This document shows positions 9,367 to 27,559 of a stretch of 32,000 nucleotides of DNA, piece by piece. Under the pieces are notes generated by a model. It was not told the origin of the DNA, searched no databases, and worked only from the letters and a program-made list of their open reading frames with translations. Numbering within the stretch: the first letter of the stretch is position 1; the number at the start of each line of letters is the position of its first letter. The DNA comes from Candidatus Brocadia sp. (GTDB taxonomy: Bacteria; Planctomycetota; Brocadiia; Brocadiales; Brocadiaceae). Both the position numbers and the translations under genes were made by a program. Where the stretch lies: assembly GCA_021650915.1 (NCBI GenBank), contig CP091279.1, forward strand, positions 2,580,001 through 2,612,000, read 5' to 3'.

Positions 9367-10020
9367 ATGAATTACGACCCTGAAAAACACCGTCGCCGTT
9401 CGATCCGTTTGAAAGGATATGATTATACACGGCCGGGGGCATACTTTGTGACCATTTGTACAGAAGGGCGGGTATGCCTCTTTGGAAATATTTCTGGCGA
9501 AACGATGCAGTTGAATGCATTCGGAAGGATTGTTCAAACGCATTGGAATGATTTGCCACATCATTATCCACAGGTGAAATTAGACGCATTTGTAATCATG
9601 CCCAACCATGTGCATGGAATCATTATTTTAACTGAAATAGACATGGTAGGGGCGGGTTTGAAACCCGCCCCTACCATCAAACAACATGGATTGCCAGAAA
9701 TCGTGCGTGCATTAAAAACATTTTCCGCGCGTCGAGTTAATGAATTACGCAACACCCCTGGTGTCTCGCTCTGGCAACGTAATTACTACGACCACATCAT
9801 ACGAAACGAAAGGGCATTAAACATAATTCGCCGTTATATTCTGTACAATCCGTTGATGTGGGCGTACGACATGGATAATCCAGACAGACATCCCTTATCC
9901 ACAGAAAAAATGAAATCTGGGATGAAACAAAAATGTGGTTTTACGGACGAGGAACTGGACTTCATCATCGATTATGATATTAAATATCGCATGGGGCGTG
10001 AGACGGATGACGAGATGTAG
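9367..10020 (+). CDS. REP-associated tyrosine transposase (RAYT, IS200/IS605-like Y1 HUH) with a chimeric C-terminus
   Basis: N-terminus RRSIRLKGYDYTRPGAYFVTICT, HUH motif MPNHVHGII, catalytic Tyr region WQRNYYDHIIRNE, and NPLMW near the usual family end. The last ~25 codons (GFTDEELDFIIDYDIKYRMGR...) instead match the methyltransferase tail. REPs flank the gene on both sides. Confidence 0.85.
   Translation: MNYDPEKHRRRSIRLKGYDYTRPGAYFVTICTEGRVCLFGNISGETMQLNAFGRIVQTHWNDLPHHYPQVKLDAFVIMPNHVHGIIILTEIDMVGAGLKPAPTIKQHGLPEIVRALKTFSARRVNELRNTPGVSLWQRNYYDHIIRNERALNIIRRYILYNPLMWAYDMDNPDRHPLSTEKMKSGMKQKCGFTDEELDFIIDYDIKYRMGRETDDEM
9646..9674. repeat. REP element GTAGGGGCGGGTTTGAAACCCGCCCCTAC inside the RAYT CDS
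   Basis: It is identical to the 7098 copy. It is read in frame as VGAGLKPAPT, just after the HUH motif. Confidence 0.9.
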
Positions 10021-10045: not shown

Positions 10046-10062
10046 CATTACAATAAAATATT

Positions 10063-12761: not shown

Positions 12762-12791
12762 TATTTGCGCTAACGGAATGATGTATTCCTC

Positions 12792-13820
12792 ATGAAGGCC
12801 ATTGTTAAAAGAAAACGGGCAAAGGGCATGGAGTTCTCCGAAGTACCCACCCCGAAGCTCGGGCTACGGGATGTGCTCATTAAGGTCAGGATCGCCTCGA
12901 TCTGCGGCACGGACGTGCATATCTATGACTGGACGCGCTGGGCTCAGCACCGTTTCACACCGCCACGTATTATCGGTCACGAATTTGTGGGGGATGTTAC
13001 CAGGGTTGGCGAGGAAGTAACACAGATAAAGGTCGGCGACCGGGTGTCTGCCGAAAGCCACCTTACCTGTGGGCACTGTTACCAGTGTAGTAACGGCAAT
13101 TCAGAAGTCTGCAGGAATTTCAAATTGCTGGGGGTTGACCATGACGGCGCCTTTGCTGAATACCTTGTATTACCCGAACACGTCCTGTGGAAAAACGACT
13201 CAAATATCCCGGATGAGTGGGCAACGATTCAGGAGCCCTTCGGCAATGCCGTTGATACGGTACTTGCTGAAGACGTTGCAGCAAAAACGGTCTTAATCCT
13301 TGGCGCAGGCCCGATTGGGCTCTTCGCCACCGGCATTGCCAGGGCCTGCGGCGCATCACTGGTTATGGTCTCCGATCCTAACAATTACCGGCTGGCTATC
13401 AGCAAACAGATGGGGGCGCACATAGCCGTTAATCCCAGGAGGCAGGATGTTGTCCAACTTGCCTTTGATGCAACACAAAATAATGGCGTGGACGTTGTCC
13501 TGGAATTTTCCGGTAATAATCAGGCCCTGAATCAGGGACTAAAGGTTATTACCCCCGGTGGCAGGATTTCCATTCTGGGTATTTATGAAAGGCGTGTAAA
13601 TATCGACCTGAATAAAGATGTCATCTTCAAAAAAATCCGTATATATGGAATAACGGGACGAAAGGTATTTTCCACCTGGTACAAGACCTCGCGTTTCCTG
13701 TCTTCGGGGCTTGTCGACCCAGGCCCTGTTATTACCCACCATTTTCCCTTAAAGGACTATGAAAAGGGTATGAAACTCATGAAGGACGGGAAGTGCGGGA
13801 AGGTTATTTTAAATGTTTAG
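12792..13820 (+). CDS. tdh: L-threonine 3-dehydrogenase (zinc-dependent MDR family)
   Basis: The protein is collinear with E. coli Tdh from memory: ICGTDVHIY.W..W, GHEFVG.V...G.EV, GDRVS.E.H..CGHC..C, GVD.DG.FAEYLV.P, EPFGNAVDT. Length is 342 aa. Confidence 0.93.
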   Translation: MKAIVKRKRAKGMEFSEVPTPKLGLRDVLIKVRIASICGTDVHIYDWTRWAQHRFTPPRIIGHEFVGDVTRVGEEVTQIKVGDRVSAESHLTCGHCYQCSNGNSEVCRNFKLLGVDHDGAFAEYLVLPEHVLWKNDSNIPDEWATIQEPFGNAVDTVLAEDVAAKTVLILGAGPIGLFATGIARACGASLVMVSDPNNYRLAISKQMGAHIAVNPRRQDVVQLAFDATQNNGVDVVLEFSGNNQALNQGLKVITPGGRISILGIYERRVNIDLNKDVIFKKIRIYGITGRKVFSTWYKTSRFLSSGLVDPGPVITHHFPLKDYEKGMKLMKDGKCGKVILNV

Positions 13821-14080: not shown

Positions 14081-14114
14081 ACCAACAAAAACAGGAAATG
14101 GGGGTAAAAAACAT

Positions 14115-14466: not shown

Positions 14467-16185
14467 GTAACTATTCAGCGAAAATATTTTAGAATTTAGT
14501 TGACAGTCAACATGAGAAAAGGGGGCCGTAGAATTGGTTGGTAGAATAAATGGCTGTGGAGGATGCCACTGTAGCCCATCGGAGGTTTTTGCAAAGAGAG
14601 GTGTGGGGTATGTTCGGCCAGAGAATTACAGAGTTTTGTAGGGCGGTAGAGGGTGAAAAAAATGGGTGAAAAAGCCTGTGGTATAATAGCCGCAGGAGAT
14701 GATTTCAGGCTATTAATACCGGTGCCATCCATTGACGATAGAGAATATAGATATAGATGCAACGCTGCGGAAAGTAGAAAAGCTGCTTTCAGAGGAAAAA
14801 GGTCTGTCACCTGCCATAAGGTCAATGATAGAGTTGTTGGTGTTAGTGATAACGCTGCTGGTAGGACGTCTGAACCGGAACAGTCGCAACAGTAGTAAGC
14901 CGCCCGCAAGCGATCCGAATCGCACGAGAAAGAGCAGGGCGAAAGGAGAGAGGAAGGCAGGTGGGCAAGAGGGTCATGATGGAGTAACGCTGAAAAAGGT
15001 AGCCAATCCTGATAAGGTGGAAGTAATAAAAGTAGACCGGAGGAAGTATCCGAGCGGCAAATACAGGTTGATCGGTTATGAGTCGCGTCAGGTGTTTGAT
15101 ATGAAGATTTCAAGGGTGGTAACGGAGTATCGGGCAGAGATAGTTGAGGATGCGGAGGGAAGTAGGTTTGTAGCGTCATTTCCGGAAGGGGTGACAAAGG
15201 CAGTGCAGTATGGGCCGGATTTGAAAGCGCACGCAGTATATATGTCACAGTATCAATTGATACCCAATAAGAGGATCCAGGAGTATTTTGAGGAGCAGAT
15301 GGGGATACCGCTGAGCGAAGGCTCTCTTTACAACTTTAACAAGGATGCCTACGAATCTCTGGAAGCCTTCGAGAGGAAAACCAAGGAAGAACTTGTCAAA
15401 TCAGAGGTATTGCAGGCAGATGAAACGAGCATCAACAAGAACGGAGACAGGTATTGGCTGCATAGTGCATCCAATAGTTTGTGGACACACTTTTTCCCTC
15501 ACGAAAGACGTGGGACGGAAGCGATGGATAGTATCGGGATACTGCCCCAGTTTCGGGGGATTCTTTGTCACGACCATTTGAAGGCGTATTACACCTACAC
15601 CCGCTGTACACATGCGCTCTGTAATGCACACCACCTGAGGGAATTGGAAGGGGTGTGGGAAGAGGATAAGAAGCAACCGTGGGCGAAAGAGATGAAAGCC
15701 CTGCTCGAAGAGATAAACCGTGCGGTAAAGGATGCGGGGGGTTTGTTGGAAAACGGCGAGTCTGAGAAATACCGGCAAAGGTACCGGGGGATATTACAAA
15801 ACGCAGAAGCTGAAAGCCCGCCCCCTGATGAAACGAACCGTAAGGGGGAAAGAGGGCGGGTAAAAAGGACAAAAGCACGGAATCTCCTGGAACGATTACG
15901 GGAGTATGAGGGTGATGTGCTCAGATTTATGGACAATAAAAACGTCCCCTTCACGAATAACCTGGCCGAAAACGATATCAGGATGACGAAGGTTCAGCAG
16001 AAGATATCGGGCTGTTTTCGTTCTCTGGACGGAGCGAAGATCTTCTGCCTCATCCGTAGTTATCTCTCGACTTGTCGAAAACAAGGGGTAAATTTAAGTC
16101 AGGCATTACGGATGGTATTTCGCGGCAAATTGCCTGATTTTGCCAGCTCGTAACGATAGGGGGCGATATTACGCTGAATAGTTAC
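14467..16185 (+). mobile_element. IS66-family insertion sequence, single-ORF (ISBst12-like) type, 1719 bp
   Basis: Perfect 14-bp terminal inverted repeats: GTAACTATTCAGCG (14467-14480) and CGCTGAATAGTTAC (16172-16185). The 8-bp direct target duplication CTTGAATT lies at 14459-14466 and 16186-16193. Both the 8-bp TSD and the GTAA-start IR are IS66-family hallmarks. Confidence 0.9.
14732..16153 (+). CDS. IS66-family (ISBst12-like) transposase
   Basis: LQADETSINKNG..YWLH, ILCHDHLKAYYTY and HALCNAHHLRELEGV are typical of DDE_Tnp_IS66 proteins. The start is TTG. The extended -10 TGGTATAAT at 14679-14687 lies upstream inside the IS. Confidence 0.9.
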   Translation: MTIENIDIDATLRKVEKLLSEEKGLSPAIRSMIELLVLVITLLVGRLNRNSRNSSKPPASDPNRTRKSRAKGERKAGGQEGHDGVTLKKVANPDKVEVIKVDRRKYPSGKYRLIGYESRQVFDMKISRVVTEYRAEIVEDAEGSRFVASFPEGVTKAVQYGPDLKAHAVYMSQYQLIPNKRIQEYFEEQMGIPLSEGSLYNFNKDAYESLEAFERKTKEELVKSEVLQADETSINKNGDRYWLHSASNSLWTHFFPHERRGTEAMDSIGILPQFRGILCHDHLKAYYTYTRCTHALCNAHHLRELEGVWEEDKKQPWAKEMKALLEEINRAVKDAGGLLENGESEKYRQRYRGILQNAEAESPPPDETNRKGERGRVKRTKARNLLERLREYEGDVLRFMDNKNVPFTNNLAENDIRMTKVQQKISGCFRSLDGAKIFCLIRSYLSTCRKQGVNLSQALRMVFRGKLPDFASS

Positions 16186-16473
16186 CTTGAATTTGTTGAA
16201 AAAGTCGATCTTCATACAGAGGTATTTATCCTTAAGGGACGTGCGATTCTAAAGAAGAACAGATTTTTACAAATATATTTTAATGAGCATACTGAAACTA
16301 CAGCCTTTGCGTTAATTGAAAATAGCAAGAGAATCTGGGGTATAGATTACGACAATATACGCGGATGGCATATTCACCCCGCCGAAAATCCAAAATCTCA
16401 CATTAATGTTGAATTCGTAACCGTTGAGGAAATTACACACTATTTAAAAGAAGTATGGTCTTGTCTGCCATAA
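16186..16473 (+). pseudogene. 3' part of the IS-interrupted TumE/DUF6516-like toxin gene (not in the ORF track because it lacks a start)
   Basis: The frame is open from the TSD to TAA at 16471-16473: LEFVEKVDLHTEVFILKGRAILKKNRFLQIYFNEHTETTAFALIENSKRIWGIDYDNIRGWHIHPAENPKSHINVEFVTVEEITHYLKEVWSCLP. Removing the IS plus one TSD copy joins it in frame to 14411-14466. YDN.RGWH.HP....H resembles the DUF6516/TumE core as I remember it. Confidence 0.55.
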
Positions 16474-16506
16474 TAGTATAACGTTTCACAAAAACATTGA
16501 CAAATA

Positions 16507-17532: not shown

Positions 17533-17535
17533 TTA

Positions 17536-17646
17536 TGCTCTCTTTACTTCCCGAAGAGGAGCAGTGCGAGATCGAGCAGTGTTTTCTAATTTGCATAACT
17601 GTTCCGGACTAAGAGATAATTTTGGCTTTTTACTAATTCCCGACAC
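17536..17646 (-). pseudogene. N-terminal segment of the IS630 transposase (upstream of in-frame TAA)
   Basis: GTG at 17646 follows AAGGAGG and reads MSGISKKPKLSLSPEQLCKLENTARSRTAPLREVKRA then TAA. The same frame continues VLLKKYQEE.... IS630 proteins typically read ..ARSRTAP.REV.RARI.LL.. at this point. Confidence 0.7.
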
Positions 17647-17755
17647 CTTGGCCTCCTTTTTTAAGGCCAATATAAATGCCGGATACTTATTTGTCAAGGT
17701 TTTTACGAAACGTTATAATAGCATGGTTTAAACCTTATGATGAGTTCAAATGTCT

Positions 17756-17780
17756 TGGTTCAATCTGCAAGATTGAACCA
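17756..17780. repeat. perfect hairpin TGGTTCAATCT-GCA-AGATTGAACCA
   Basis: An 11-bp stem with a 3-nt loop, in the noncoding gap between the IS630 end and the STAND gene stop. Confidence 0.7.
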
Positions 17781-17791
17781 GCCGTGGGGTT

Positions 17792-17818
17792 GTAGAGCGA
17801 CGAGGCTCGTCGCTCTAC
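17792..17818. repeat. REP-like palindrome GTAGAGCGACGAGGCTCGTCGCTCTAC
   Basis: A near-perfect 27-nt palindrome with a GTAG...CTAC frame like the other REPs but a different core. Confidence 0.75.
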
Positions 17819-18035
17819 ATTGAGAAGGTCGCCATACTGCCTCAGATGGGGAGGGTGAATTAATCCTGTCCTGAGTTTGCGAAGAGCGAAGCGCATCCAC
17901 CTTGCATTCAAATAATGGCGGTGGATTCGGCGCAAAAGACATTGCCTTAATCGTTCGACTGAGCGCTCACGACGAAGTCCACCCTACCCAAGCTGAGTTG
18001 TTAAAGAATCATCATTCCTTCACTTGGCTACAGAA

Positions 18036-21000
18036 TTACTCCTTCTTCGAAACCTGTGTCTTTGCCCATTCAAGGATCTGGTCGAATTTGCTCTGGCCGG
18101 GCGGAGGCGGGTTGAGTAAGGGGCGGAACTTTTTGTCGTAAACGAAATAATCTCCACCATCGCGGCAGGAAAGAGAAAGGGTTTTTCTGAATTCTAACCC
18201 ATCCCGCTGCACCTGCCAGAAAAAGGTTGCCCCCTGAAAAAATGTGTTAAGGAGTGGGTTCGGTTTGCCTTTATCCAGGAACAACGTGTACAAACTGATA
18301 TCCCACAGACGCACACGATTGTTTTGTGAGCCGGTGGCCAGATACCTCCCGTCCGGACTAAATGTTACGCTGGTGAAAAGAGCAGGCTCGTCTATGTCTA
18401 TAGACACCGTAAGGAATGGCTCAGGAACCCCGGTCGAGATATCCCATACATTCAAATTAAATAGTGAACTGCATGCAAGATATTTGCTGTCAGGACTGAA
18501 TGAAAGACTGGTTCCCGGCCCACATAAACCAGTTGCAGTAATCTTCTGCACGATCTTACCAGAGAAAAAATCCCACAACCGCAGGTCGCCATCAATAGTA
18601 ACAGAGGCGAGGTATTTCTCGTCAAGGCTAAATGCTATGTTTGCAATACGATCGGACAATGCCTCCATTGACGTGTCTCCGGAACGCGAATAACCCTCCA
18701 ACTCCCTTACCTTATTTCTCGTTTCGACCTCCCATATGAAAATCTTATGCGTATCAGTTGAGGCAAGATACTTCCCACTGGGGTGAAAAAAAAGACCTAT
18801 TACGCTATCGGTATGACCAGTCAACTTACGCAGAATCTCTCGGGTGGAGACATTCCATAATAGTATCGTGTCGTCTTTTGCGCCTGATGCAAGATATTTT
18901 CCATTAGGACTGAACGCAACACTCATAACAGTATTTGTATGACCCGTTAATGCACGAGAACCCTCTCCGGACTTCCCCTCCTTGTCCTTATCTTCCCGCG
19001 CGTTATTCCCCAAAAAACGCATGCGGTCATCCCATTCGTTATTATTGTCAGAAGAGCCGTTGACAATGTCTGGCTCCCCACCGGCATTCCCATCGTGGAG
19101 ACCACCGTCATCAGAAAACCCTCCCTGATCCTCACTAGAAGTGTCTCCCTTCAGTTCACACACAAGCTCGCCGGTATCAGCGTCCCACAAACGCACGCTG
19201 TTTTTGTATGCACCCGATGCAAGATATTTCCCATCCGGACTGAACGCTATGCTAATAACAGGATACGTATGTCCTTTTAATTCCTTTACCACCTTCGTAA
19301 AGAGGTTATATAAACGCAAAGTGCCATCAACAGTGCCATAGGCAAGACACTCACCTTTGGGGTGATATGCAACACTATAAACCTGAAAATCTGCTCCATC
19401 GAAATCTTTTACTTCCTTTCCCGCAGGTACATCCCACAAACGTATTGTGTTGTTGTACGAACCTGAGGCGAGAAACTTTCCATCAGGGCTGAATGCGACA
19501 CTCCAGACTTCATCTTCATGTCCTTCCAAATTCTTTATTACCTCTCCTGTGTGGAAATCCCATAACCGCACACTATTATCAGCTGAGCCGGCCGCAAGGT
19601 GCTTCTCATCGGGACTAAACGCTACGCTCGTAACCCTATCGGTATGTCCCGGGAGTTCCCGCACCAGCACACCGGTGGCCGCATCCCACAGCCGCACACC
19701 ATTGTTCCACGAGCCGGAGGCCAGGTATCTCCCATCGAGACTAAACGCCACACTCGTAACCCCATATGTATGTCCCGGGAGTTCCCGCACCAGCACACCG
19801 GTGGCCGCATCCCACAATTGCACACCCGTATCGTATGATCCAGAGGCAAGGTACTTGCCATCAGGGCTAAATGCCACACTTCTTACGTCGCTGGTATGCC
19901 CTGCGAACTTTAGTAATTTTTTTCCTTTTGCAACATCCCACAACCGAACACTCTCATCATCCGAACCCGATGCAAGATATTTCCCATCAGGGCTAAATGC
20001 CACGCTTACAACAGCATCAGTATGTCCTTCCATTTCATAAACCAACTTCTTTTTTGAGAGATCCCACAACCGCACGATTTTATCGTTTCCACCGAAAGCA
20101 AGGTATTTCCCGTCAAGGCTGAATGCCACACTCTCGACGGATACTCCATGCCCGCTCCATAGCACCTCTTCTTCACCGTCAGAGATGTTCCGTACACATA
20201 CGATACCCTGTTTTGAGCCGGTGGCAAGGCTCTTGCCATCGGGACTATAAGCTAAGGAAAGAATGGCATCCTCCTGCCCTTTTGGTTCATGCACCTCTTT
20301 TACGTTAAATCTCTCAATAGGAACGTCCCATAAACTCACACTGCAATCAGCCGATCCTGTAGCAAGGTACTTCCCATCAGGGCTGAATGCGACGCTCCTA
20401 ACCTTATCGGTATGCCATCCTGACAGTATGGCAACCTCTTTTTTGATAGAAACATCCCATATCCTTGCGCTTTTATCATATGACCCGGATGCAAGGTATC
20501 CGCCATCGGGACTAAATGCGACGCTACTAACATAATCGGTATGTCCTTCCCACTTATGCTCTTCTTTTCCGGTGGCAACCTTCCACAACCGCACACTCTT
20601 GTCTTGGGAACCGGATGCAAGGTATTTGCCATCAGGACTGAATGCAACACTCCAGACGGCATATTCATGCCCTGACAGTTTCTTTGTCTCCCCTGTCTTG
20701 ACATTCCACAACCGCACACTATCATCGGATAAACCGAGGGCAAGCGTCCCCCCGTTAGGACTGAACGCTATACACTGGACGCTCCCATCGAGCTCATTTA
20801 GGCTATTCTTTTTATTTCCCGTCCTGACATTCCACAACTGTACACTGCTATCGTATGATCCAGAGGCAAGGTACTTGCCATCAGGACTAAATGCTACACT
20901 TATAACAGTATCCGTATGACCTTTGATGACCCTCTTTACTTTTCCCGTGGCAATCTCCCATAATCGAACGCTCTTGTCAACTGAGCCTGAGGCAAGATAC

Positions 21001-23876
21001 TTCCCATCAGGACTAAATGCCACGCTTTCAACAGCATCAGTATGTCCTTCCAGAATAAGCACCTCCTCCCCCGTGGCAACCTCCCACAATCGCACACTCT
21101 TGTCATCTGCAGATGATGCAAGGTATTGCCCATCCCAGCTAAATGCGACACAATTGACAACATCTTCATGCCCTGTCTTATACAAAGATTTTCCTGTGGA
21201 GACATCCCAGAGACCCACGCTGTAATGGTACGAACCCGTGGCAAGCATCTTGCCGTCCGGATGAAACGCTATGCTCATAACGTTATCTGTATGCTGCAAT
21301 ACCTTCACCGTTTTGCCGGTAGATATATCCCACAAACGTACAATCTCATCACCTGAACCTGAGGCAAGATACTTCCCATCGGGACTAAATGCCACGCTTG
21401 TAACAGCATCAGTATGACCTTCCAGTTTTCTGTTTTTTCTTGTTTCAATATCCCACAATAGCACACTCTTGTCCACTGAACCTGAAGCAAGATACTTTCC
21501 GTCCGGGCTGAATGCGACACTCCAGACTTTATCTTCATGTACTTCAAATGTATCTTTTTTCATTCCTGTAGCGAAATCCCATAAAATTACACTCTTGTCA
21601 AATGAAGCTGAAGCAAGGTACTTCCCATCCGGATCAAACGCGAGGCCTGGAACAAGATTTTCATGTCCCTTCATCGTACGTACCTGTTTCAAGGAAGGGA
21701 CCTCCAGCACTTCAATATTAAAACCCGAGGGAAAGGCAAGATATTTGCCATCCGGGCTAATGGCTATTCTCCCGATCATGGGCACTTTTGGGGATACACC
21801 TTTTCTGTGCAGTAGCTTTCCGGTAGAGGGATCCATTATCAGCAAGGTTCCATCCTCTGAACAGGAAACAAGATGTTTTCCATCGGGAGTAAACGCTATA
21901 TCCCAAACAGTGCGTTTGTGTTCCTTCCATACATATATCGGGTCTCCGGTAGACACATCCCACAAGCGGATGACGCCATCATGTGAACCGGAAGCCAACC
22001 ACTTTTTATTTCTGCTAAACGCCACACAGCATACAGGAGAATCCATGTTCATTGTCGGTGAATGCCAGCGTTGAGTAAACGCCGATCTCATGACCTTTGG
22101 ATCAAACAGTTCTCCTAAAGTTTTCTTTCCTATGGCAATTGGCCATGGCTCAAGAGTTTCCTGTAACGCGGTATTTGCGAAGAGAAAGGCGTTCTTATAC
22201 CCTTCATAGTTATTTTTATTTTTCGCTGTTTCCAACGCTCCAATTGCTTTTTCTTCCAGCGTTTTAACAATTACTTTAGTTGCCTCATATCGTGCTTTTT
22301 TTTCTTCATCTTCAAGCCGTTTTATCTTAAAGGAAATAATAATAGCGATAACAAGAAGAATCCCTATCACTCCCAGTAAAATACGCATAATTTTTAGGTG
22401 CTTCTTTTGCTGTTTGGCTTTTTCTCTCTGCAAGCGTTCCCGTTCTTCCCGTTGTCTTTCTTTCTCCTGGAGTTCTTGTTTAAATGCCTCATGACTCTTG
22501 TTGAGGAAATCAATGGCATCCGGAAAACCCCTGGTGTCTCTTATACCCCATAGTCTCGTTGAATATTTTTGCCCTTGCCAGTCCAGGGCAATCTGTAAAT
22601 CGGTTTCGCGATAGAGCTCCGCCTTACCCCGTGTATTCAATTTAGCAGTTTCTGCAAGCCGCTTATAGATCCTGGCGGATTCTGCCTCTTCGTCAACCCA
22701 TCTGGATAAGGTCTCCCATTGCCGGATAAGGCTTTCATGGGAAATATCAATAATGGGATCGGTATCAGATGAAACTACGAGGAAGTTGCGGTCGTTTTCC
22801 CGGAATTTTTCTATTGTCATCATGACCCTTTCAGGGGCCGCGCCGCATATTTCAGCAATCTCGTTCAAATTCGTTGGCCGGCGTACACGACGATTTCCGG
22901 CATCGGTCTCCGTAATCGTTTTAAACAGATATTCGGCTATTACCCTGTCTTCATCATTTAATTCACGCAACGCCTCTTCCGCATGACGGGAGAGGGCGTG
23001 TTCCATCGTGTGGATTTCTTCGTAGTGCCGGATGTCGATGGGGCCATTGCCATTTTTTCCCCAGGCCGACCAGGTACGCATGAGGACATGCTGCAAAACC
23101 GGTAATTCATCATGGCTATCGCTGCTCTCATTCAGCAGGCGGTCAGACAGGCGCGGTGTAATGTATGCACCATAGAGGTGAATGGGGCCTTCAATGGCTT
23201 CGCGGCGCTGCTGGCGGGTCAGGCGCGGCACCAGGTACTGGCCTTTATTCATAGCTTCCGGCAGGCCGTGGAAGGAATCACAGTCGCCGAGAAAATCTGA
23301 ACGCATGGTCATGGTTACGTACACCGGTATCTCTCTCTGCTCAGCGAGACCAAGCATAATGGATACAAAATCTGCTACGTTATCGCTCATTTCAGCCTTG
23401 CCATGGTGCAGACCAAAACGAAATATCTCTTCGAATTGATCCACCAGTAATAAGACATTGGTATCATCTTTTTTTAAAGAGGATGCAAGTCTGTCGATGA
23501 CAGCCTGCACGCCCTGCTCACGAATCATCCTGGTAAACTCTGTAATCTGTTCGCTAATTTCTTTTTTACCTTTGGCATCGAGCAATGATGCTGCCAGGTT
23601 ATGGATCGGGTTATCTCCGGGCTTCGTCCTGACAATGAGCCAATCGTCACGGTCTGCCACAAGAAACCCCACCTGTAATCGGGGAATTAAACCGGCGCGG
23701 ACAAGGGAAGATTTACCACAGCCGGAACTGCCAACAACCGCCAGGAAACGGTTCTTACGGAGCTGCTGTAAAAGCTCAAGGATTTGTTCATGCCGGCCAA
23801 AGAAGAGCAGGCTTTCATGCGCCTCAAAAGGTCTCAGCCCGACAAACGGATTTGCTGGCAAGGCATTCCGGCTCAT
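18036..23876 (-). CDS. STAND P-loop NTPase (NACHT/nSTAND-like) - single TM helix - 28x WD40 repeat protein
   Basis: N-terminus PFVGLRPFEAHESLLFFGRHEQ..FLAVVGSSGCGKSSLVRAGLIPRL (Walker A at about 23703-23729). Walker B is LLLVDQFEEIF. A helical region follows (HESLIRQWETLSRWV). A charged coiled-coil flanks the hydrophobic MRILLGVIGILLVIAIIISF (22326-22388). I counted 28 units of the type GH...V.SVAFSPDGKYLASGS.D.SVRLWD across about 18240-22080. Confidence 0.9.
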   Translation of the reverse strand: MSRNALPANPFVGLRPFEAHESLLFFGRHEQILELLQQLRKNRFLAVVGSSGCGKSSLVRAGLIPRLQVGFLVADRDDWLIVRTKPGDNPIHNLAASLLDAKGKKEISEQITEFTRMIREQGVQAVIDRLASSLKKDDTNVLLLVDQFEEIFRFGLHHGKAEMSDNVADFVSIMLGLAEQREIPVYVTMTMRSDFLGDCDSFHGLPEAMNKGQYLVPRLTRQQRREAIEGPIHLYGAYITPRLSDRLLNESSDSHDELPVLQHVLMRTWSAWGKNGNGPIDIRHYEEIHTMEHALSRHAEEALRELNDEDRVIAEYLFKTITETDAGNRRVRRPTNLNEIAEICGAAPERVMMTIEKFRENDRNFLVVSSDTDPIIDISHESLIRQWETLSRWVDEEAESARIYKRLAETAKLNTRGKAELYRETDLQIALDWQGQKYSTRLWGIRDTRGFPDAIDFLNKSHEAFKQELQEKERQREERERLQREKAKQQKKHLKIMRILLGVIGILLVIAIIISFKIKRLEDEEKKARYEATKVIVKTLEEKAIGALETAKNKNNYEGYKNAFLFANTALQETLEPWPIAIGKKTLGELFDPKVMRSAFTQRWHSPTMNMDSPVCCVAFSRNKKWLASGSHDGVIRLWDVSTGDPIYVWKEHKRTVWDIAFTPDGKHLVSCSEDGTLLIMDPSTGKLLHRKGVSPKVPMIGRIAISPDGKYLAFPSGFNIEVLEVPSLKQVRTMKGHENLVPGLAFDPDGKYLASASFDKSVILWDFATGMKKDTFEVHEDKVWSVAFSPDGKYLASGSVDKSVLLWDIETRKNRKLEGHTDAVTSVAFSPDGKYLASGSGDEIVRLWDISTGKTVKVLQHTDNVMSIAFHPDGKMLATGSYHYSVGLWDVSTGKSLYKTGHEDVVNCVAFSWDGQYLASSADDKSVRLWEVATGEEVLILEGHTDAVESVAFSPDGKYLASGSVDKSVRLWEIATGKVKRVIKGHTDTVISVAFSPDGKYLASGSYDSSVQLWNVRTGNKKNSLNELDGSVQCIAFSPNGGTLALGLSDDSVRLWNVKTGETKKLSGHEYAVWSVAFSPDGKYLASGSQDKSVRLWKVATGKEEHKWEGHTDYVSSVAFSPDGGYLASGSYDKSARIWDVSIKKEVAILSGWHTDKVRSVAFSPDGKYLATGSADCSVSLWDVPIERFNVKEVHEPKGQEDAILSLAYSPDGKSLATGSKQGIVCVRNISDGEEEVLWSGHGVSVESVAFSLDGKYLAFGGNDKIVRLWDLSKKKLVYEMEGHTDAVVSVAFSPDGKYLASGSDDESVRLWDVAKGKKLLKFAGHTSDVRSVAFSPDGKYLASGSYDTGVQLWDAATGVLVRELPGHTYGVTSVAFSLDGRYLASGSWNNGVRLWDAATGVLVRELPGHTDRVTSVAFSPDEKHLAAGSADNSVRLWDFHTGEVIKNLEGHEDEVWSVAFSPDGKFLASGSYNNTIRLWDVPAGKEVKDFDGADFQVYSVAYHPKGECLAYGTVDGTLRLYNLFTKVVKELKGHTYPVISIAFSPDGKYLASGAYKNSVRLWDADTGELVCELKGDTSSEDQGGFSDDGGLHDGNAGGEPDIVNGSSDNNNEWDDRMRFLGNNAREDKDKEGKSGEGSRALTGHTNTVMSVAFSPNGKYLASGAKDDTILLWNVSTREILRKLTGHTDSVIGLFFHPSGKYLASTDTHKIFIWEVETRNKVRELEGYSRSGDTSMEALSDRIANIAFSLDEKYLASVTIDGDLRLWDFFSGKIVQKITATGLCGPGTSLSFSPDSKYLACSSLFNLNVWDISTGVPEPFLTVSIDIDEPALFTSVTFSPDGRYLATGSQNNRVRLWDISLYTLFLDKGKPNPLLNTFFQGATFFWQVQRDGLEFRKTLSLSCRDGGDYFVYDKKFRPLLNPPPPGQSKFDQILEWAKTQVSKKE

Positions 23877-25381
23877 GCGGCACCGCCTTTCTGCATCAGG
23901 TGCAATACCGGGGCAAGCGCTCCGGATTCAATCGAGGCGCTTTTACTGTTGTCAATGAGATGTACCCGTATGGCTTGGCCAAGGTTGAAATTAAGGTCTC
24001 TTTTCTCAGGTGGAATGGCAAAGACGCAGAAATATTTTATCGGGAATTTTTTTGTAAAGCTGAGTTGCAGAGCGGCGCTAAGCCGCTGACGCACCCAATT
24101 TTCATTCACGCTGCCAAACAGTATCATGAGCATAGACACCTCTTTGAGCCTGGCTTCAAGGGCATCCATATTCTTGCCTGGATCGTCTTCCTGGGGGTTT
24201 ATGTAAGGCTGGATGTTATTCTCCAAAAGAAATTTGCTTAAATCCAGGGCATATCTCTGGTCTTTTACATGGGTATCCAGAAGCACGGCGTGAGGCGCGC
24301 CATTCGCTTTGGCTGCTGTTTGCAACCGCTCTATCTTTTCGATAATTTGCGGCACCAAATCAGCAGGTATCCCGCGTATGAAATCATAAGCGGCACGAGT
24401 CCGGTCGTCACTTTCGAGTTTGGTTAGAAACTCCTTCTGGCATTCATCTTCAATCGTTTCCAGATCGAGATCCTTTGACGCCCAGATGAGTTGTGCGGCA
24501 GTGGCGTTCAATGCGAGTTCCACTTGTTTTCGTGGATAAGAAATGTCAGGCTCACCTTCAATTTCTCTTCCGGAGTAGCCGTCTAACAGATGAACACTGA
24601 GAACCGATTCCTTGAGTACGACGCTGACCCTTTCTTCATGTGCCCGGGCTTCATACGGAGGGGGTATATTGCTCACTATTTTTATCCCCTTGCGCTGCAA
24701 ATCATTGACTACGCGGGATCGCACGGAACGCAGGGAATCGCTGACATCAGAAACAAAGACACACGGGATGTCTTTTAACGATACGGTTTCTTTTCCTGGT
24801 TTCCGGGTTGCCGTACCCTCTGCCTTTGTTTTAAAGGCCTGAAGCATCGTATGGAGGGAATCAACCAGTTTTCTGAGTTGATCGTGAAACCTTTTGTCGG
24901 CCGGATCGGTTGGCATTCCGACAGCGTCGGTTTTCTCTGCGTCATGGAAGGGATATCCACTCATACCGCTGAATTCCTTTGGCCATTTGTCATAGGGAAT
25001 GTTGCTCAATAATACGTTGTATATCCGCGAGCGATCACCCATCTGTAATCCATATTTTTCTGCCTGTGCTTTTGTGTGAAACAACTGTAACTCCTTTGGA
25101 CAATAACTATCAGGGTGAAAGTAGCCATGGGAAGTAAGCGCCAGGAACAGTGCAGATTTATCAATAGCGGACTGAATTGTGTTGTCCAACAATTGATTGC
25201 CTTCAAGCCTCATATCTCGCCAGATTTTTACCAGTCCCATCCGGCCGATGCATTTTGCGAGGGCAATTTCCAGTTCTTCATGAAACTGATTGACCCAGCA
25301 TGACTTGCCTTGTATAGCGCAATTGTCGACATGTGCGTAGCTGATAAAGATGTCGTGTTCAAAACCGGGGATGTAGGCCAT
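23873..25381 (-). CDS. TIR-domain protein with ~340-aa C-terminal extension
   Basis: The preferred start is ATG at 25381 (GGAG 8 nt upstream); the ORF-track start at 25444 has no RBS. TIR-like motifs: DIFISYAHVDN, IWRDMRLEGNQLLDNTIQSAIDKSALFLALTSHGYF, YCPKELQLF. Its TGA overlaps the ATG of the STAND gene (ATGA at 23873-23876). Confidence 0.8.
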   Translation of the reverse strand: MAYIPGFEHDIFISYAHVDNCAIQGKSCWVNQFHEELEIALAKCIGRMGLVKIWRDMRLEGNQLLDNTIQSAIDKSALFLALTSHGYFHPDSYCPKELQLFHTKAQAEKYGLQMGDRSRIYNVLLSNIPYDKWPKEFSGMSGYPFHDAEKTDAVGMPTDPADKRFHDQLRKLVDSLHTMLQAFKTKAEGTATRKPGKETVSLKDIPCVFVSDVSDSLRSVRSRVVNDLQRKGIKIVSNIPPPYEARAHEERVSVVLKESVLSVHLLDGYSGREIEGEPDISYPRKQVELALNATAAQLIWASKDLDLETIEDECQKEFLTKLESDDRTRAAYDFIRGIPADLVPQIIEKIERLQTAAKANGAPHAVLLDTHVKDQRYALDLSKFLLENNIQPYINPQEDDPGKNMDALEARLKEVSMLMILFGSVNENWVRQRLSAALQLSFTKKFPIKYFCVFAIPPEKRDLNFNLGQAIRVHLIDNSKSASIESGALAPVLHLMQKGGAA

Positions 25382-25504
25382 AACAAAACTCCATGTTTTG
25401 ATGAGAGACAGGCGAAAAAACGCAAGTAATATATCAAAAGACATTCAGAATAGCCAGTATTTCTTTCCTTGACGCCAAGACATTTCAATCTTGTAGATGC
25501 AATT

Positions 25505-27559
25505 TATAGAGCTGGCGCATAAGCGAAAAGATTCGTTGTAAATCAGGGAGAAGAGGCGATAGGACGGGGCAATAATTTTGTAAAGTCTACAAAAAGATAT
25601 CAAGAACGGCAGCATGAAAAGGCTTGTTTTTCAGGGGAGATGAAAAAATATTTGAAGAAAAGAGGGGAAAAATTACAAAATAGTCGTGCCCATCTTGTAT
25701 AATAAATCAGGCAAACTATTCGAAATACCATACAAGGGAGGGCACAGTGAAATGATACCATTATTGAGGAACACAAGCCAGCAAAAACCATTATTCCATA
25801 TCATTCATGAAGACGACAGATATTTGCTGAATACCGATGATGCGGAGTGGTTTCAGGTATTGTACCATTTTCGATACGAAAGATATGTGGGGTTTGGAGT
25901 AGACTATTATAATGCGCTGCATGAATTTAACCAGAAGCAGGCCAGGGAGCGAGAAGAGCGAGGAGTTGAGGGGGAGAAAGATGCGAGGGAGACCAAGGAG
26001 GAAGCGCGGCAGAGATTGCTCTTTTCACGGGTAACCATGCAGGCAGAGGGTGAGAGAGGAGAAGGGGTTTTATTCGAGGTAAAAAGAGAAGATTTGTCGC
26101 TATCGGGGGTATCTCCGGAGAGTATAGCGCCTGGCAAGGTGCCATTTCGATTTGGGGGGAAAAAGCCGAAGTGTTTTTTTGCTTTGCTGAAGAGTTTTAT
26201 CGGTGCAACGATAATGGGGTTTCCCGCCGAGCCGGAAAAGGTGTACCGGTTATTGAAGAGCAATCCCAGTTTTGCGCGGGTATGTGGATTTATTCCCAGA
26301 CACGTCAGGGACGAGTATTGCAGTGAGCACATACCAAGCCTTCGGAAGCTGGAGCAGTTTGACCAGATCATGAGAGAAAGCGGGATATGGGCGAGGATAA
26401 AAGTGGAAGAGGTGAAAGCGAACATAACGAGTGGGATCATAAGAAAGGAAAATGAGTTGGTGGGAGACACGACCCATTATTACGCGTATTCGGGCTTTGA
26501 GACCGTAGTATATAAAGATGCGAGTGGCAAAGAGCAGAAGAAATCGCAGTCAAAGGTAACCAAGAGGTGTGGTTGCGAAGATAAGCAGGGGTGCAGTCAT
26601 TCGTGGGGATTGAGTGATGATGGGGCGGGGACAATCGTAAAATCCGGGGGAAAGATGTATTGGGGTCACAAGGCAAGTGTGCTTGGGTATCCCCGTCAAG
26701 GGATACCCTTAGATGCGCGTGCGATAAAGGATGCGGCGACCTTTGATGGAATGACCTTATACCCGCACGTGAAGGAAGTCTTTGAGATGTATCCGGAGAT
26801 TCAACCGTCGGTAGAAAGGGTATTGTATGATAGCGCAGGCGACAGTGATGAAATCAAGAAGAAATTCAGGGAGGATCTGGGTATAGAGGTAAAGGTGTCT
26901 TTCAATCCAAGAAGGAAAAAGGAGATCACGGAAGATTTGCCACGAGGAATAGACAAGATTACACCGTATGGTATTCCGGTGTGTAAGGCGGGATACGAGA
27001 TGGAATATCAGGGGATGAGATACGAACATGAGAAGTTTATCTATCAAGCGCCAAAGGATTCAGACAATGCGCCGGTATGTCGCGCTTGTTATCATCGAGA
27101 GGATTGTTGCCCAAATGCTACCGGTGGCAGGATAATCAATATCTCGTTTGGTCTCTTGCCACACATAGACCCCAAAGACCCTCCGATGGCGAAGAGGTAC
27201 AAGGCCATCATGTCCCGTCGTCCTGCGGTGGAAAGGATGATAAAACGGTTGAAGTGTGACTTTGGGGATGATCGGCTCACGAAGCGGGGAAACGATTCGT
27301 TCCAGGCATACCTGGATAAAACCATGATTGCGTTTCATGTCTTGTTAAGAAACTAAATCTGGTTTTCAGCGTAAAAGAGTCGTCGTGTGGAGGGATGGTA
27401 CGTCTGGAATTCGGCTTATTTGGTCTGGTGTCCTCTGACGAATCGTTTTTCTCTCTCTTTGACCTCGCTTTTGAGTGAAATCCGTTTCTCTGTCAATGCA
27501 CACATGATGCAGTTCCGCCTTTTCATGGCTTGTTTTTTAGTTTATGCGCAGGCTCTATA
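25505..27559 (+). mobile_element. IS4/IS5-superfamily-like insertion sequence (about 2.06 kb)
   Basis: The terminal inverted repeats are TATAGAGCTGGCGCATAAGC (25505-25524) and the reverse complement of 27540-27559, TATAGAGCCTGCGCATAAAC. These match at 17 of 20 positions. The element has a single DDE transposase ORF. No clear target duplication found. Confidence 0.7.
25752..27356 (+). CDS. DDE transposase (IS4-like; DDE_Tnp_1-type C-terminus)
   Basis: Candidate catalytic residues are in VGDTTHYYAYSG and VLYDSAGDSDE. The C-terminal RRPAVERMIKRLK carries the R-x3-E-x6-K signature, followed by LTKRGNDSFQAYLDKTMIAFHVLL. ATG at 25752 is preferred because GGGAGGG and the extended -10 TGTATAAT (25696-25703) lie upstream; the ORF track starts at 25686. 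Confidence 0.8.
   Translation: MIPLLRNTSQQKPLFHIIHEDDRYLLNTDDAEWFQVLYHFRYERYVGFGVDYYNALHEFNQKQAREREERGVEGEKDARETKEEARQRLLFSRVTMQAEGERGEGVLFEVKREDLSLSGVSPESIAPGKVPFRFGGKKPKCFFALLKSFIGATIMGFPAEPEKVYRLLKSNPSFARVCGFIPRHVRDEYCSEHIPSLRKLEQFDQIMRESGIWARIKVEEVKANITSGIIRKENELVGDTTHYYAYSGFETVVYKDASGKEQKKSQSKVTKRCGCEDKQGCSHSWGLSDDGAGTIVKSGGKMYWGHKASVLGYPRQGIPLDARAIKDAATFDGMTLYPHVKEVFEMYPEIQPSVERVLYDSAGDSDEIKKKFREDLGIEVKVSFNPRRKKEITEDLPRGIDKITPYGIPVCKAGYEMEYQGMRYEHEKFIYQAPKDSDNAPVCRACYHREDCCPNATGGRIINISFGLLPHIDPKDPPMAKRYKAIMSRRPAVERMIKRLKCDFGDDRLTKRGNDSFQAYLDKTMIAFHVLLRN

Follow-up and report, generated by a model that had tools for sequence, protein, structure and literature searches.

A candidate two-gene conflict module in Candidatus Brocadia pairing a three-domain TIR protein with a predicted membrane-anchored STAND NTPase

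The gene pair and its surroundings

The stretch of Candidatus Brocadia sp. DNA analysed here (the window, 32,000 nucleotides of contig CP091279.1) carries two adjacent genes on its minus strand, the upstream one (gene 1, 23873..25381) encoding a TIR protein and the downstream one (gene 2, 18036..23876), defined from its ORF and Pfam matches, a 1946-aa STAND NTPase with a putative membrane anchor and a WD40 array. Both ORFs lie on the minus strand where the first-pass annotation had placed them (23873..25444 and 18036..23876). The longest ORF for gene 1 (23873..25444, minus strand) corresponds to the 523-aa protein proposed at that stage; this length was corrected to 502 aa because the homologues, 27/27 of which begin at the equivalent M-A-Y-I-P-G-F when aligned, place the start at the ATG at 25381, in agreement with NCBI's own call of 502 aa (UJS19540.1/KKO17952.1). 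The same ATG had been described as supported by a ribosome-binding site, and a GGAG can be read 7 nt upstream of it (25389..25392, minus strand). Gene 2 corresponds to UJS19539.1 (1946 aa), annotated by NCBI as 'hypothetical protein'. The stop codon of gene 1 and the start codon of gene 2 share an ATGA (23873..23876, minus strand), as previously reported, the junction reading ...GGT GCC GCA TGA with ATG AGC CGG in the +1 register, and this 4-nt overlap is predicted to couple the translation of the two genes.

The pair is bordered upstream by an IS element on the plus strand (25505..27559) with 25-nt imperfect terminal inverted repeats located exactly at both proposed ends (25505-25529 and 27535-27559) and a DDE_Tnp_1_6/IS1182-like transposase (25686..27356), inserted 124 nt upstream of gene 1. 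A promoter scan identified no sigma-70-like promoter in the 123 nt between the end of the IS element and the gene 1 start codon, and the promoter and terminator scans gave no excess over shuffled expectation. Downstream of gene 2 lies an IS630-family transposase on the minus strand, apparently in two frames (16507..~17645; NF033545, 203 bits). The adjoining region 17735-18035, initially considered a REP cluster but not confirmed as one, contains two perfect hairpins (17756..17819) in the gap that separates gene 2 from the IS630 element, with 11-bp and 14-bp stems; those at 17756-17780 and 17791-17819 differ in sequence and the larger is single-copy in the window. The window represents a mobile-element and restriction-gene island around the pair, and the island-like context claimed earlier, with its IS and restriction-type genes, holds for this window but does not appear to be general across the family: among 132 neighbour ORFs from 20 homologous loci few matched defence models, with no dominant defence family by raw count, and the neighbours were mostly housekeeping or ordinary chromosomal genes. 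Toxin-antitoxin genes or a second TIR gene were seen beside the pair at some homologous loci.

Domain architecture of the two proteins

According to its AlphaFold2 model (mean pLDDT 91) and to alignments, the gene 1 protein is composed of three tandem α/β domains (D1, D2 and D3), whose relative arrangement is uncertain because the pTM of the full model is only 0.51. The description of gene 1 as a TIR protein is therefore accurate for its N-terminus, where D1 (aa 1-193; 24803..25381, minus strand) is a canonical TIR domain, but overlooked two further conserved α/β domains. D1 matched TIR_2 (PF13676) with 34.3-34.5 bits against a Pfam cutoff of 28, as did 28/28 gene 1 family members, and adopts a flavodoxin-like TIR fold with Foldseek matches to the RUN1, RPS4, SARM1 and SPARTA TIRs (TMt up to 0.6; RUN1, RPS4 and SARM1 with probability 1.0 and TMt 0.53-0.60). 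The catalytic glutamate E97, within an S-x-x-Y-C-x-x-E-L motif, is invariant (118/118 family members) and was aligned with the catalytic glutamate of the Cat1 TIR in a PDB profile match as well as with that of the plant TIR motif. The TIR motif strings listed previously are all present in the translation, at positions 95-100% conserved in the family. Profile, fold and catalytic residue jointly bear out the TIR assignment, and D1 is a putative NADase.

D2 (aa 205-361; 24299..24769, minus strand) is weakly similar to DUF4062, a TIR-like NADase family. Its match to PF13271 (16.5 bits) falls under the 24.7 cutoff, and such a match was detected in 9/28 members (best E 1e-5). Y282 (118/118), Q286 (115/118) and E288 (98/118) are conserved in this domain, with E288, kept in 83% of the members, at the catalytic-equivalent position. 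D3 (aa 364-500; 23882..24292, minus strand; model pLDDT 92), which has invariant columns, did not match any Pfam family; it is the most conserved block of gene 1 (LLDTHxKDQ...IQPYINPQEDDPxKN) and has an invariant arginine (R433) where a TIR domain would have a glutamate. The D2-D3 model matched the SARM1 and RPS4 TIRs and DNPH1 with probability 1.0, in an output that does not state the matching domain. D2 and D3 are as well conserved as the TIR domain and may constitute a novel type of module for docking or regulation. They were rejected as recognizable TIR duplicates, since hhalign comparisons among the D1, D2 and D3 slices gave E >= 0.098 and no profile similarity of D3 to either D1 or D2; any common origin of the three domains is visible only at the fold level and in the sub-threshold DUF4062 signal.

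Gene 2 begins directly with an nSTAND1 NTPase module (aa 10-412; 22641..23849, minus strand), confirming the STAND-type P-loop NTPase originally read from its P-loop and Walker B motifs. The PF20703 match scores 313 bits (cutoff 27.1) and covers profile positions 1-369 of 379, that is the full module, with an intact Walker A lysine (G49-S-S-G-C-G-K55-S-S; 23706..23732, minus strand) and intact Walker B acidic residues (L143-L-V-D146-Q-F-E-E150; 23427..23450, minus strand), both located in the translation and in the partner alignment. The two Walker motifs and a TMRSDF block are >= 95% conserved in 49 STAND partners. The search for a solved relative of this NTPase returned only generic P-loop matches. 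A helical, highly charged juxtamembrane segment (aa 413-495; 22392..22640, minus strand), rich in Lys and Arg beside the membrane, leads to a single hydrophobic helix (aa 496-516, IMRILLGVIGILLVIAIIISF; 22329..22391, minus strand) identified by hydropathy as membrane-spanning.

This helix is found at the same place in nearly all complete STAND partners, and a transmembrane helix was present in 110/113 database relatives of gene 2, suggesting that membrane anchoring is a constant of the STAND family. Topology was assigned from hydropathy and charge rules only. The bias of gene 2 itself is weak (7 Lys and Arg in the 15 aa before the helix vs 6 after), but the family averages 6.9 before the helix, on the NTPase side, and 3.2 beyond it, and the N-terminal count is the higher one in 45/48, so that the positive-inside rule predicts a single-pass N-in/C-out protein. 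Relatives with WD40, LRR, peptidase M15, GH19 or lectin C-termini, predicted to lie outside, have one helix, and those with CHAT or pentapeptide C-termini, predicted to lie inside, have two or four. The one transmembrane helix listed in the earlier annotation was thus retained, whereas its consequence, a predicted extracytoplasmic WD40 array, had been missed.

Beyond the helix, a linker (aa 517-607; 22056..22328, minus strand), also predicted to be extracytoplasmic, precedes 28 WD40-type repeats (aa 608-1861; 18294..22055, minus strand) that probably face outside the cytoplasm and may form an extracytoplasmic sensor. Classical GH-WD type repeats are usually cytoplasmic, which counts against this placement. 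A repeat HMM derived from the protein itself recovered exactly the 28 units counted before, 20 at >= 48 bits and 8 degenerate, and Pfam WD40 (PF00400) matched 25 stretches with 914 bits; 28 units would correspond to roughly four propellers. Repeats 23 and 24 are separated by a 68-aa acidic, Gly/Asn-rich insert (aa 1568-1635; 18972..19175, minus strand), and the series is followed by an 85-aa C-terminal tail without assignment and the stop codon (18036..18293, minus strand). A repeat-shuffling signature is known from some fungal NLRs. The corresponding high internal repeat conservation was rejected for gene 2, since its WD40 repeats are not highly similar in DNA, the search having found a single 126-bp array of 2.6 copies (78%), and the shuffling signature is accordingly absent.

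Conservation of the pair and exchange of its C-terminal part

The gene 1 family comprises more than 611 full-length matches with 42-59% identity. D2-D3 proteins fall into 727 clusters when grouped at 50% identity, and relatives of the NTPase subfamily number more than 4,500. Hosts belong to Planctomycetota, Bacteroidota, Acidobacteriota and Pseudomonadota, with further members in bins from metagenomes that carry the label Desulfobacterales or Anaerolineales, and the distribution of the pair over unrelated phyla is patchy. Native hosts of the pair include Variovorax rhizosphaerae, Aequorivita antarctica and Arenibacter amylolyticus. The question of synteny raised by the first-pass annotation received a clear answer: the TIR and STAND genes occur together and in the same order in 59/59 testable loci from several phyla, and the 4-nt overlap is kept in 43/58 homologous loci, in keeping with the proposed separate but coupled effector and switch polypeptides. 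Metagenomic variants with pentapeptide, CHAT or GH19 sensors also carry the pair. A third conserved gene was not found, the next commonest neighbour family being present in only 9 loci. Rare in-frame fusions place TIR-D2-D3-nSTAND1-WD40/TPR on a single chain (P0340, P0301 and P0315). That the two genes are merely adjacent, or that the TIR domain is a non-catalytic scaffold, with no coupled effector-switch mechanism, could draw on the pTM of only 0.51 for the full TIR-protein model; it is nevertheless very improbable given the co-conservation in 59/59 loci, the conserved overlap, the single-chain fusions and the invariance of E97 (118/118), and mere adjacency is already effectively refuted.

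NTPase identity and TIR-protein identity covary (r = 0.85), and 361/499 pairs with NTPase modules >= 60% identical have unrelated C-termini, drawn from WD40, LRR, Lcl_C, Peptidase_M15_4, B_lectin, GH19, TPR, CHAT and pentapeptide types. The TIR protein and the NTPase are thus inherited as a constant unit, whereas the putative C-terminal sensor is freely swapped. No adaptor common to both proteins was detected, the comparison of D1-D3 with the N-terminal 610 aa of the STAND giving E >= 0.16 in hhalign and E >= 0.94 in BLASTP. An adaptor or amyloid-type motif of the BASS or EAD style, linking the C-terminus of gene 1 to the N-terminus of gene 2, was likewise sought and not found. Because neither an adaptor nor a docking motif was detected, contact between the TIR protein and the STAND is deduced from genetics only.

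The pair could alternatively serve as a non-immune transmembrane signalling or programmed-death module that senses the state of the envelope, fragments of peptidoglycan or, within aggregates or biofilms, the cells nearby, with the TIR protein altering NAD+ metabolism or triggering developmental cell death rather than defending against phages or mobile elements. Mostly ordinary chromosomal neighbourhoods, predicted extracytoplasmic sensors that include cell-wall-related Peptidase_M15_4 and GH19 domains and lectins, and aggregate-forming or filamentous hosts such as Brocadia and Desulfobacterales are compatible with such a role, and Kaur et al. tie related STAND systems to a multicellular habit (PMC8195603). 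We consider it rather unlikely: the pair is a self-contained two-gene unit, and a conflict system fits better than housekeeping signalling because of the patchy distribution over unrelated phyla, the rapid sensor swapping between close relatives, the IS-rich, restriction-gene island in this window and the toxin-antitoxin or second TIR neighbours at some loci.

Relation to known systems and proposed mechanism

Known defence systems (Avs, bNACHT, Thoeris, FxsC) were ruled out as identities for the pair, since PADLOC and NCBIfam gave no matching family. PADLOC had no model for either protein except for a weak ThsB-like TIR match, and no NTPase match; the score against FxsC, the TIR-like protein of the FxSxx-COOH system (NF040588), was 38.9 bits, well below the cutoff of 130. 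In the literature searched we found neither an experimental study of the module nor a name for it.

With Avs proteins the pair shares a three-part logic (an effector, a STAND switch and a sensor made of repeats), and some Avs also have an NAD+-targeting effector; Avs5 (SIR2-nSTAND3-TPR) is a validated defence protein with the sister clade nSTAND3. The sensors of Avs proteins work in the cytoplasm, where they recognise phage terminase or portal. The Brocadia pair differs in matching none of the Avs1-5 models of PADLOC and in encoding the effector on a separate chain, as do 59/59 loci. Effectors encoded apart from the STAND have been validated for Avs, the gene for the MBL or Pepco effector directly preceding that for the STAND in Avs2 and Avs4 (10.1101/2025.11.14.688446). 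Activation of these split effectors depends on a protease domain carried by the Avs STAND, whereas the Brocadia STAND has none. bNACHT proteins are NLR-like STANDs with N-terminal effectors that include TIR and, in some, C-terminal transmembrane segments (10.1101/2022.07.19.500537); the Brocadia NTPase, by contrast, has nSTAND1 and not the NACHT clade as its best match, with no PADLOC bNACHT match, and the two-gene operon is strictly conserved in modules of the Brocadia type.

The earlier view of this layout as unique was too strong in the light of the upstream Avs effectors, of the transmembrane segments of bNACHT proteins and of Kaur et al. 2021 (PMC8195603), who describe a predicted split pair, bDLD3-STAND-FGS and bDLD3-TIR. 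The nSTAND1 counter-invader systems of that study resemble the Brocadia pair in belonging to the same PF20703 clade, in a TIR effector possibly on a separate polypeptide and in a variable C-terminal sensor. They differ in sharing a homotypic adaptor (bDLD3/EAD) or fusing an N-terminal effector, whereas the Brocadia pair has no shared domain, its STAND starts with the NTPase and is predicted to be membrane-anchored, and its TIR protein has two extra conserved α/β domains. The same adaptor on both chains, the mark of adaptor-coupled STANDs (EAD/Death-like; Kaur et al. 2020, 2021), is missing here, and the consulted sections of PMC8195603 contain no description of a pair of TIR-D2-D3 and transmembrane nSTAND1 proteins. 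Split effector/STAND layouts and transmembrane STANDs are already known in kind, and the module is a variant rather than a new category.

DUF4062 relatives are proven NADases next to STAND and WD40 in TEP1 and NWD1 (10.64898/2026.05.01.722283). Bacterial Swarozyc and human TEP1/NWD1 thus resemble the Brocadia pair in having a TIR-like NADase beside STAND and WD40, for which activation by STAND oligomerisation was proposed (10.64898/2026.05.01.722283), and D2 is itself weakly DUF4062-like. The Brocadia pair differs from them in that the D2 match is below cutoff and a canonical TIR precedes D2, the putative NADase part and the STAND are on separate chains, the NTPase is nSTAND1 and not NACHT, and a membrane helix separates the WD40 array from the NTPase.

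Thoeris likewise encodes its TIR apart from the partner in a two-gene operon, but in Brocadia the TIR protein is paired with a STAND NTPase whose putative sensor varies and in which no known Thoeris effector or signal-binding domain is present. A reversed, Thoeris-like logic may nonetheless be formulated, in which the TIR protein would be the infection sensor and produce a nucleotide signal, for instance an isomer of cADPR, and the membrane STAND would be the effector, disturbing the membrane or cell wall, for example through its C-terminal domain. The matches that point this way are weak (ThsB1, 20.9 bits in PADLOC; ThsB_TIR in 6/28 members), Peptidase_M15_4, GH19 and CHAT are possible effector-enzyme C-termini, and a systematic Thoeris survey (10.64898/2025.12.03.692087) reports the TIR as a separate protein and many effectors with transmembrane helices. 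The consulted parts of that survey mention no STAND NTPase partner, and the Brocadia STAND has no recognised signal-binding domain (SLOG, Macro). We regard the reversed logic as improbable: a conserved NTPase whose repeat or lectin C-terminus is freely exchanged looks like a receptor and not like an effector, the C-termini are for the most part repeats without enzymatic function (WD40, LRR, TPR, pentapeptide), the TIR protein is the constant part, and in the fusions the effector comes before the NTPase, as it does in canonical TIR-NLRs.

On balance we lean towards viewing the pair as an NLR-like conflict module, self-contained in its two genes, that most likely serves as an immune switch for abortive infection or cell suicide. 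The NLR-like split immune module first suggested for this locus is supported by the comparisons above, with none of the refuting tests that were run going against it; its immune role, the nature of the ligand and activation by oligomerisation are what we infer. On this reading gene 2 would be the receptor, with a cytoplasmic nSTAND1 switch and the WD40 array as ligand sensor across the membrane, and gene 1 the executioner, supplied in fixed proportion through translational coupling and possibly docked onto the NTPase module by D2 and D3. Binding of an outside ligand (a surface structure of phage or other foreign origin, or a product of envelope damage) would be signalled through the helix and release the NTPase, which would swap its nucleotide and oligomerise in the plane of the membrane. 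The bound TIR proteins would be clustered until TIR-TIR contacts complete the NADase active site, and destruction of NAD+ or production of a nucleotide signal would lead to growth arrest or cell death. A further-reaching and tentative proposal, which we hold to be possible rather than probable, is an 'outside-in' NLR whose swappable ectodomain (WD40, LRR, lectin or peptidoglycan-hydrolase-like) senses phage, foreign cells or envelope damage and whose NTPase assembles a separate TIR NADase.

In animal Toll-like receptors a repeat ectodomain and a single membrane helix are joined to a cytoplasmic TIR output. The 'outside-in' proposal resembles them as a functional analogy, with a putative repeat ectodomain (LRR in variant L061), a single helix and a cytoplasmic TIR. 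The receptor chains are non-homologous, however, and in Brocadia the predicted orientation is the opposite one (N-in), an NTPase switch stands between sensor and output, and the TIR, on a second polypeptide, is expected to act as an enzyme and not as a scaffold. If the proposal is correct, the module would be a functional prokaryotic counterpart of Toll-like receptor signalling, STAND/NLR switches could act as transmembrane receptors, and abortive defence could be triggered before or without the entry of foreign DNA. To our knowledge, almost every bacterial defence system of the STAND/NLR type or based on a TIR that has been characterised senses its trigger in the cytoplasm. The constant parts of this widespread module are a predicted cytoplasmic NTPase, a membrane anchor and a TIR partner, and its variable part is usually predicted to lie outside; should this topology be true, it becomes directly testable whether a STAND switch can signal across a membrane and what envelope cue triggers NAD+-based suicide. 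The pair also offers a natural system for the recruitment of an effector by a STAND without a shared adaptor or a protease, and since several cultured hosts carry it, such experiments are feasible.

Architecture of the gene pair

The two minus-strand ORFs proposed in a first-pass annotation of this DNA were both recovered, at 23873..25444 (gene 1; 523 aa in its longest form) and at 18036..23876 (gene 2; 1946 aa), and their 4-nt ATGA overlap was read at 23873-23876 as GCA TGA / ATG AGC. The ATG at 25381 likewise stands as the start codon of gene 1, with a GGAG 7 nt upstream, an equivalent MAYIPGF opening in all aligned homologues and a length of 502 aa in the database record. Gene 1 corresponds to UJS19540.1/KKO17952.1 (502 aa), annotated as a 'TIR domain-containing protein', and gene 2 to UJS19539.1 (1946 aa), annotated as a 'hypothetical protein'. 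The motif strings quoted from the sequence are present in the translation and fall on positions that are 95-100% conserved among relatives. The overall reading of the pair as a coupled TIR and STAND/WD40 module holds, and we consider the finding real.

Gene 1 belongs to a large family of ~500-aa proteins with 42-59% identity across the full length. Its AlphaFold2 model (118 sequences; pLDDT 91) comprised three α/β domains, D1 to D3, with a disordered linker at residues 194-202. D1 (aa 1-193) is the canonical TIR domain claimed for the N-terminus, scoring 34.3 bits with Pfam TIR_2 against a cutoff of 28. Foldseek matched it to the TIR domains of RUN1, RPS4, SARM1 and SPARTA, its family profile matched plant TIRs and the TIR of CRISPR-associated Cat1 in alignments that pair the catalytic Glu residues, and E97 is kept in 118/118 family members. 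D2 (aa 205-361) gave a sub-threshold DUF4062 signal of 16.5 bits in the window protein (cutoff 24.7), with matches in nine of 28 members (best E value 1e-5), and E288, at the equivalent Glu position, is kept in 98 of 118 members. A 2026 study showed DUF4062 domains to be TIR-like NADases, at work in the Swarozyc system of bacteria and in human TEP1, where the domain adjoins a NACHT NTPase and WD40 repeats (10.64898/2026.05.01.722283). D3 (aa 364-500), a domain without family assignment, holds the most conserved block of the entire protein and carries an invariant Arg (R433) at the TIR-Glu position. When modelled without D1, D2-D3 (pLDDT 92, pTM 0.69) matched the SARM1 and RPS4 TIRs and the NDT-fold enzyme DNPH1 with probability 1.0, the matches not specifying D2 or D3, so at least one of the two has a TIR/NDT-like fold. 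Profile-profile comparison of D1, D2 and D3 with one another revealed no significant similarity.

The N-terminal 412 residues of gene 2 form an nSTAND1 NTPase (Pfam, 313 bits, aa 10-412), in agreement with the STAND assignment made from the sequence. Walker A, Walker B and the TMRSDF block each show conservation of at least 95% across 49 partners (gene 2 homologues). The profile begins at residue 10, and the N-terminus contains neither an effector nor an adaptor; a search for solved structures related to this NTPase at the sequence level found none. The predicted transmembrane (TM) helix was located as a single hydrophobic helix at aa 496-516, and a self-built repeat HMM counted exactly the 28 WD40 units previously claimed, at aa 608-1861. 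Between units 23 and 24 lies a 68-residue acidic insert (18972-19175; aa 1568-1635), Gly/Asn/Asp-rich and of low complexity, which might serve as a hinge between propellers or form a loop that has a function of its own. The sole DNA-level tandem repeat of the WD40 region (19557-19880; 126-bp unit, 2.6 copies, 78% matches) encodes the near-duplicate repeats 'TGVLVRELPGHT...' (aa 1359-1442), indicating one comparatively recent repeat duplication.

Conservation of the pair in other genomes

In a scan limited to one genome per species, 63 loci were recovered, distributed among Bacteroidota (Chitinophagales, Flavobacteriales and Bacteroidales), Acidobacteriota (Blastocatellia), Variovorax and one gammaproteobacterium. 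Short partners of ~700 aa occur in Variovorax rhizosphaerae KACC 18900 and Arenibacter amylolyticus AK53, and cultured carriers of the pair include Aequorivita antarctica SW49, Ulvibacter antarcticus DSM 23424 and Ilyomonas limi. Co-conservation elsewhere had been put forward as a check on the pair, and the gene after the TIR gene proved to be an nSTAND1 homologue in all 59 loci with downstream sequence, with E values from 4e-45 (partners cut by a contig end) to 1e-169 (full-length partners). A 4-nt overlap between the TIR stop and the partner start recurs in 43 of 58 loci, the remainder having small gaps or overlaps, and no third conserved gene was found across the loci. The same ~500-aa TIR gene lies immediately upstream in the metagenomic pentapeptide, CHAT and GH19 variants, and an exhaustive search with D2-D3 only yielded 727 clusters at 50% identity, mostly of the same architecture. 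Mere adjacency of two genes is excluded as an explanation. Identities of the NTPase modules and of the TIR proteins covary across loci (r = 0.85), and the C-termini were unrelated in 361 of the 499 pairs whose NTPase modules were at least 60% identical, so TIR protein, NTPase and helix make up a constant unit in which the sensor is exchanged.

None of the best 120 NTPase relatives carried a fused TIR. Fusions are rare and place the effector before the NTPase, as in classical TIR-NLRs. Two database relatives, P0340 (TIR-D2-D3-nSTAND1-TM-WD40, 1773 aa) and P0301, are joined in frame at the gene boundary, and a third, P0315, has an internal deletion that removes Walker A; these fusions could be genuine or could result from misassembly across the overlap. 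The domain order of the fusions argues against a Thoeris-like reversal of roles, in which the TIR protein would sense and the STAND protein would execute, as do the receptor-like variability of the STAND C-terminus and the lack of a signal-binding domain in the STAND protein; weak ThsB matches and the enzymatic nature of some C-termini would fit such a reversal, which we regard as very unlikely.

Some relatives and loci depart from the common layout or carry additional genes. P0262 has a ParA-like AAA_31 domain before the TIR, P0347 a 560-aa N-terminus without assignment, and several proteins of ~300-340 aa consist of D2-D3 without a TIR and may be fragments. In some Bacteroidota loci (likely L010:933-2354; L011:8465-9886; L016:7055-8473 and 8492-9934; L061:7045-8469), the TIR gene is directly preceded on its own strand by genes for proteins of ~475 aa; these are probably the MAP3K_TRAF_bd (PF13281) and TPR-S (PF20308) matches among the neighbouring ORFs, and could represent a conflict system of their own or an accessory part. 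In a Desulfobacterales pentapeptide variant (L064:7899-11325), three genes lie convergently downstream of the pair, namely a further TIR_2 gene that differs from the first (393 aa), an unassigned gene of 499 aa and a tail-tube-like Phage_T4_gp19 gene. The TIR-family gene of a CHAT variant (L066:3517-5004) was called in two pieces of 335 aa (with TIR_2) and then 125 aa, pointing to a frameshift, pseudogene or sequencing error, and a DUF4258/MqsA toxin-antitoxin pair is found just downstream. A second, partial nSTAND1-type ORF (E value 1e-13) occurs ~10 kb downstream of the pair at the ends of two flavobacterial loci (L037, 21180-21485; L040, 21132-21485), a hint that such regions may hold more than one STAND system. 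A patatin-like neighbour is common to nine loci, which are flavobacterial to judge from one example (L040).

Membrane topology and proposed mechanism

A hydrophobic helix following a Lys/Arg-rich helical stretch is present in nearly all complete genome partners and in 110 of 113 database relatives. Within 15 residues, 48 partners averaged 6.9 Lys+Arg on the NTPase side versus 3.2 on the far side, with the N-terminal side exceeding the C-terminal one in 45 of the 48, which predicts an N-in, C-out topology; the bias of gene 2 itself is weak (7 vs 6), so this call rests on the family. A single helix is found ahead of WD40, LRR, Lcl_C, Peptidase_M15_4, B_lectin, GH19 and TPR C-termini, two are found ahead of the CHAT C-terminus, and four ahead of pentapeptide repeats (884-aa variants, common in Desulfobacterales). 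The number of helices, predicted for relatives that include P0136 and P0142 and for loci L064 and L066, thus tracks the type of C-terminal domain, and would place cell-wall-acting and lectin domains outside and the caspase-like protease inside, a consistent pattern that supports genuine membrane spans. Applied to the Brocadia protein, this reasoning predicts an extracytoplasmic position for its array of 28 WD40 repeats.

The pair has the anatomy of a membrane-anchored NLR-type switch whose parts are divided between two polypeptides. Past the point that the two genes form a unit, we infer every step of its mechanism. The sensor would lie outside and the NTP-dependent oligomerisation module inside, with the TIR executioner supplied in a fixed ratio through translational coupling. 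Binding of a ligand to the ectodomain would release the NTPase, and its oligomerisation would cluster the bound TIR proteins and so activate NAD+ hydrolysis, in the way known for other TIR NADases and proposed, through oligomerisation, for the TEP1 NADase (10.64898/2026.05.01.722283). No shared adaptor was found between the gene 1 and gene 2 proteins, and D2 and D3, being as conserved as the TIR and covarying with the NTPase, are the best candidates for a docking or regulatory interface. A non-immune role of the pair in envelope or kin sensing would agree with ectodomains of cell-wall type and with the ordinary neighbourhoods seen beyond the window, and is in our judgement unlikely.

The components and general logic of such an NLR-type switch are already known, and the layout is less unprecedented than had been claimed, since split effector/STAND systems have been described. 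The EAD/bDLD3-linked split systems presented by Kaur et al. (PMC8195603) are adaptor-linked, whereas this pair has no shared adaptor, and it also differs from Avs2/Avs4, whose upstream effectors are protease-activated (10.1101/2025.11.14.688446). The name nSTAND1 was given in 2021 (PMC8195603) to a STAND clade whose members carry effectors or adaptors fused at the N-terminus; this clade has been noted among the targets of diversity-generating retroelements, and its sister clade nSTAND3 is the Avs5 NTPase. Some bNACHT proteins carry TM segments (10.1101/2022.07.19.500537), and 'transmembrane STAND ATPases' have been mentioned as protease-linked sensors (10.1101/2025.11.14.688446). The main text and available supplements of the 2025 systematic Thoeris survey (10.64898/2025.12.03.692087) make no mention of a STAND NTPase partner, and no description of a conserved TIR-D2-D3 + TM-nSTAND1 operon was found in the literature searched, most subscription journals lying outside it. 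New here are the strictly kept division into two genes with no adaptor, a TIR partner of three domains and the predicted membrane-spanning receptor with mostly external sensors; the transmembrane receptor design and the family-wide conservation make the pair more interesting than the first-pass annotation had stated.

Surroundings of the pair in the window

The pair sits in a ~27-kb region rich in mobile elements and restriction-type genes, and this region is followed on one side by the housekeeping genes rsmB and fmt. A PLD-SNF2-helicase protein (600..3851), a 383-aa ORF without assignment (3854..5005), a group II intron reverse transcriptase/maturase (5683..6849), ORFs at 6812-7183 and 7017-7781 and an Eco57I-type methylase (7824..9290) occupy positions 600-9290, a stretch reminiscent of a restriction or DISARM-like defence locus that the intron may have interrupted. 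Four different transposase families occur within 18 kb (9367-17645 and 25505-27559), namely an IS200-like Y1 (9367..10020), an IS66 (14732..16153), an IS630 (16507..~17645, apparently in two frames) and an IS1182-like element (25505-27559), and a lone Zn-dependent threonine/alcohol dehydrogenase gene (12792..13820) lies among the transposases. The boundaries claimed for the IS1182-like element, 25505 and 27559, are marked by 25-nt terminal inverted repeats. The 'REP cluster' described alongside it dissolved into two different hairpins adjoining IS630, the larger of which is not repeated within the window.

The IS1182-like element ends 124 nt upstream of the gene 1 start codon, and no sigma-70-like promoter was seen in the intervening 123 nt. 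The nearest candidate, which is also the sole such match upstream, lies inside the element on the minus strand (25603-25575; 9/12), and the gene 1/gene 2 operon may be transcribed from within the IS or use a non-canonical promoter. The element is immediately followed, at 27793-29107, by a tandem pair of genes for paralogous outer-membrane lipoproteins of the Slp family, 180 and 204 aa long, the second with a Tyr/Trp-rich tail.
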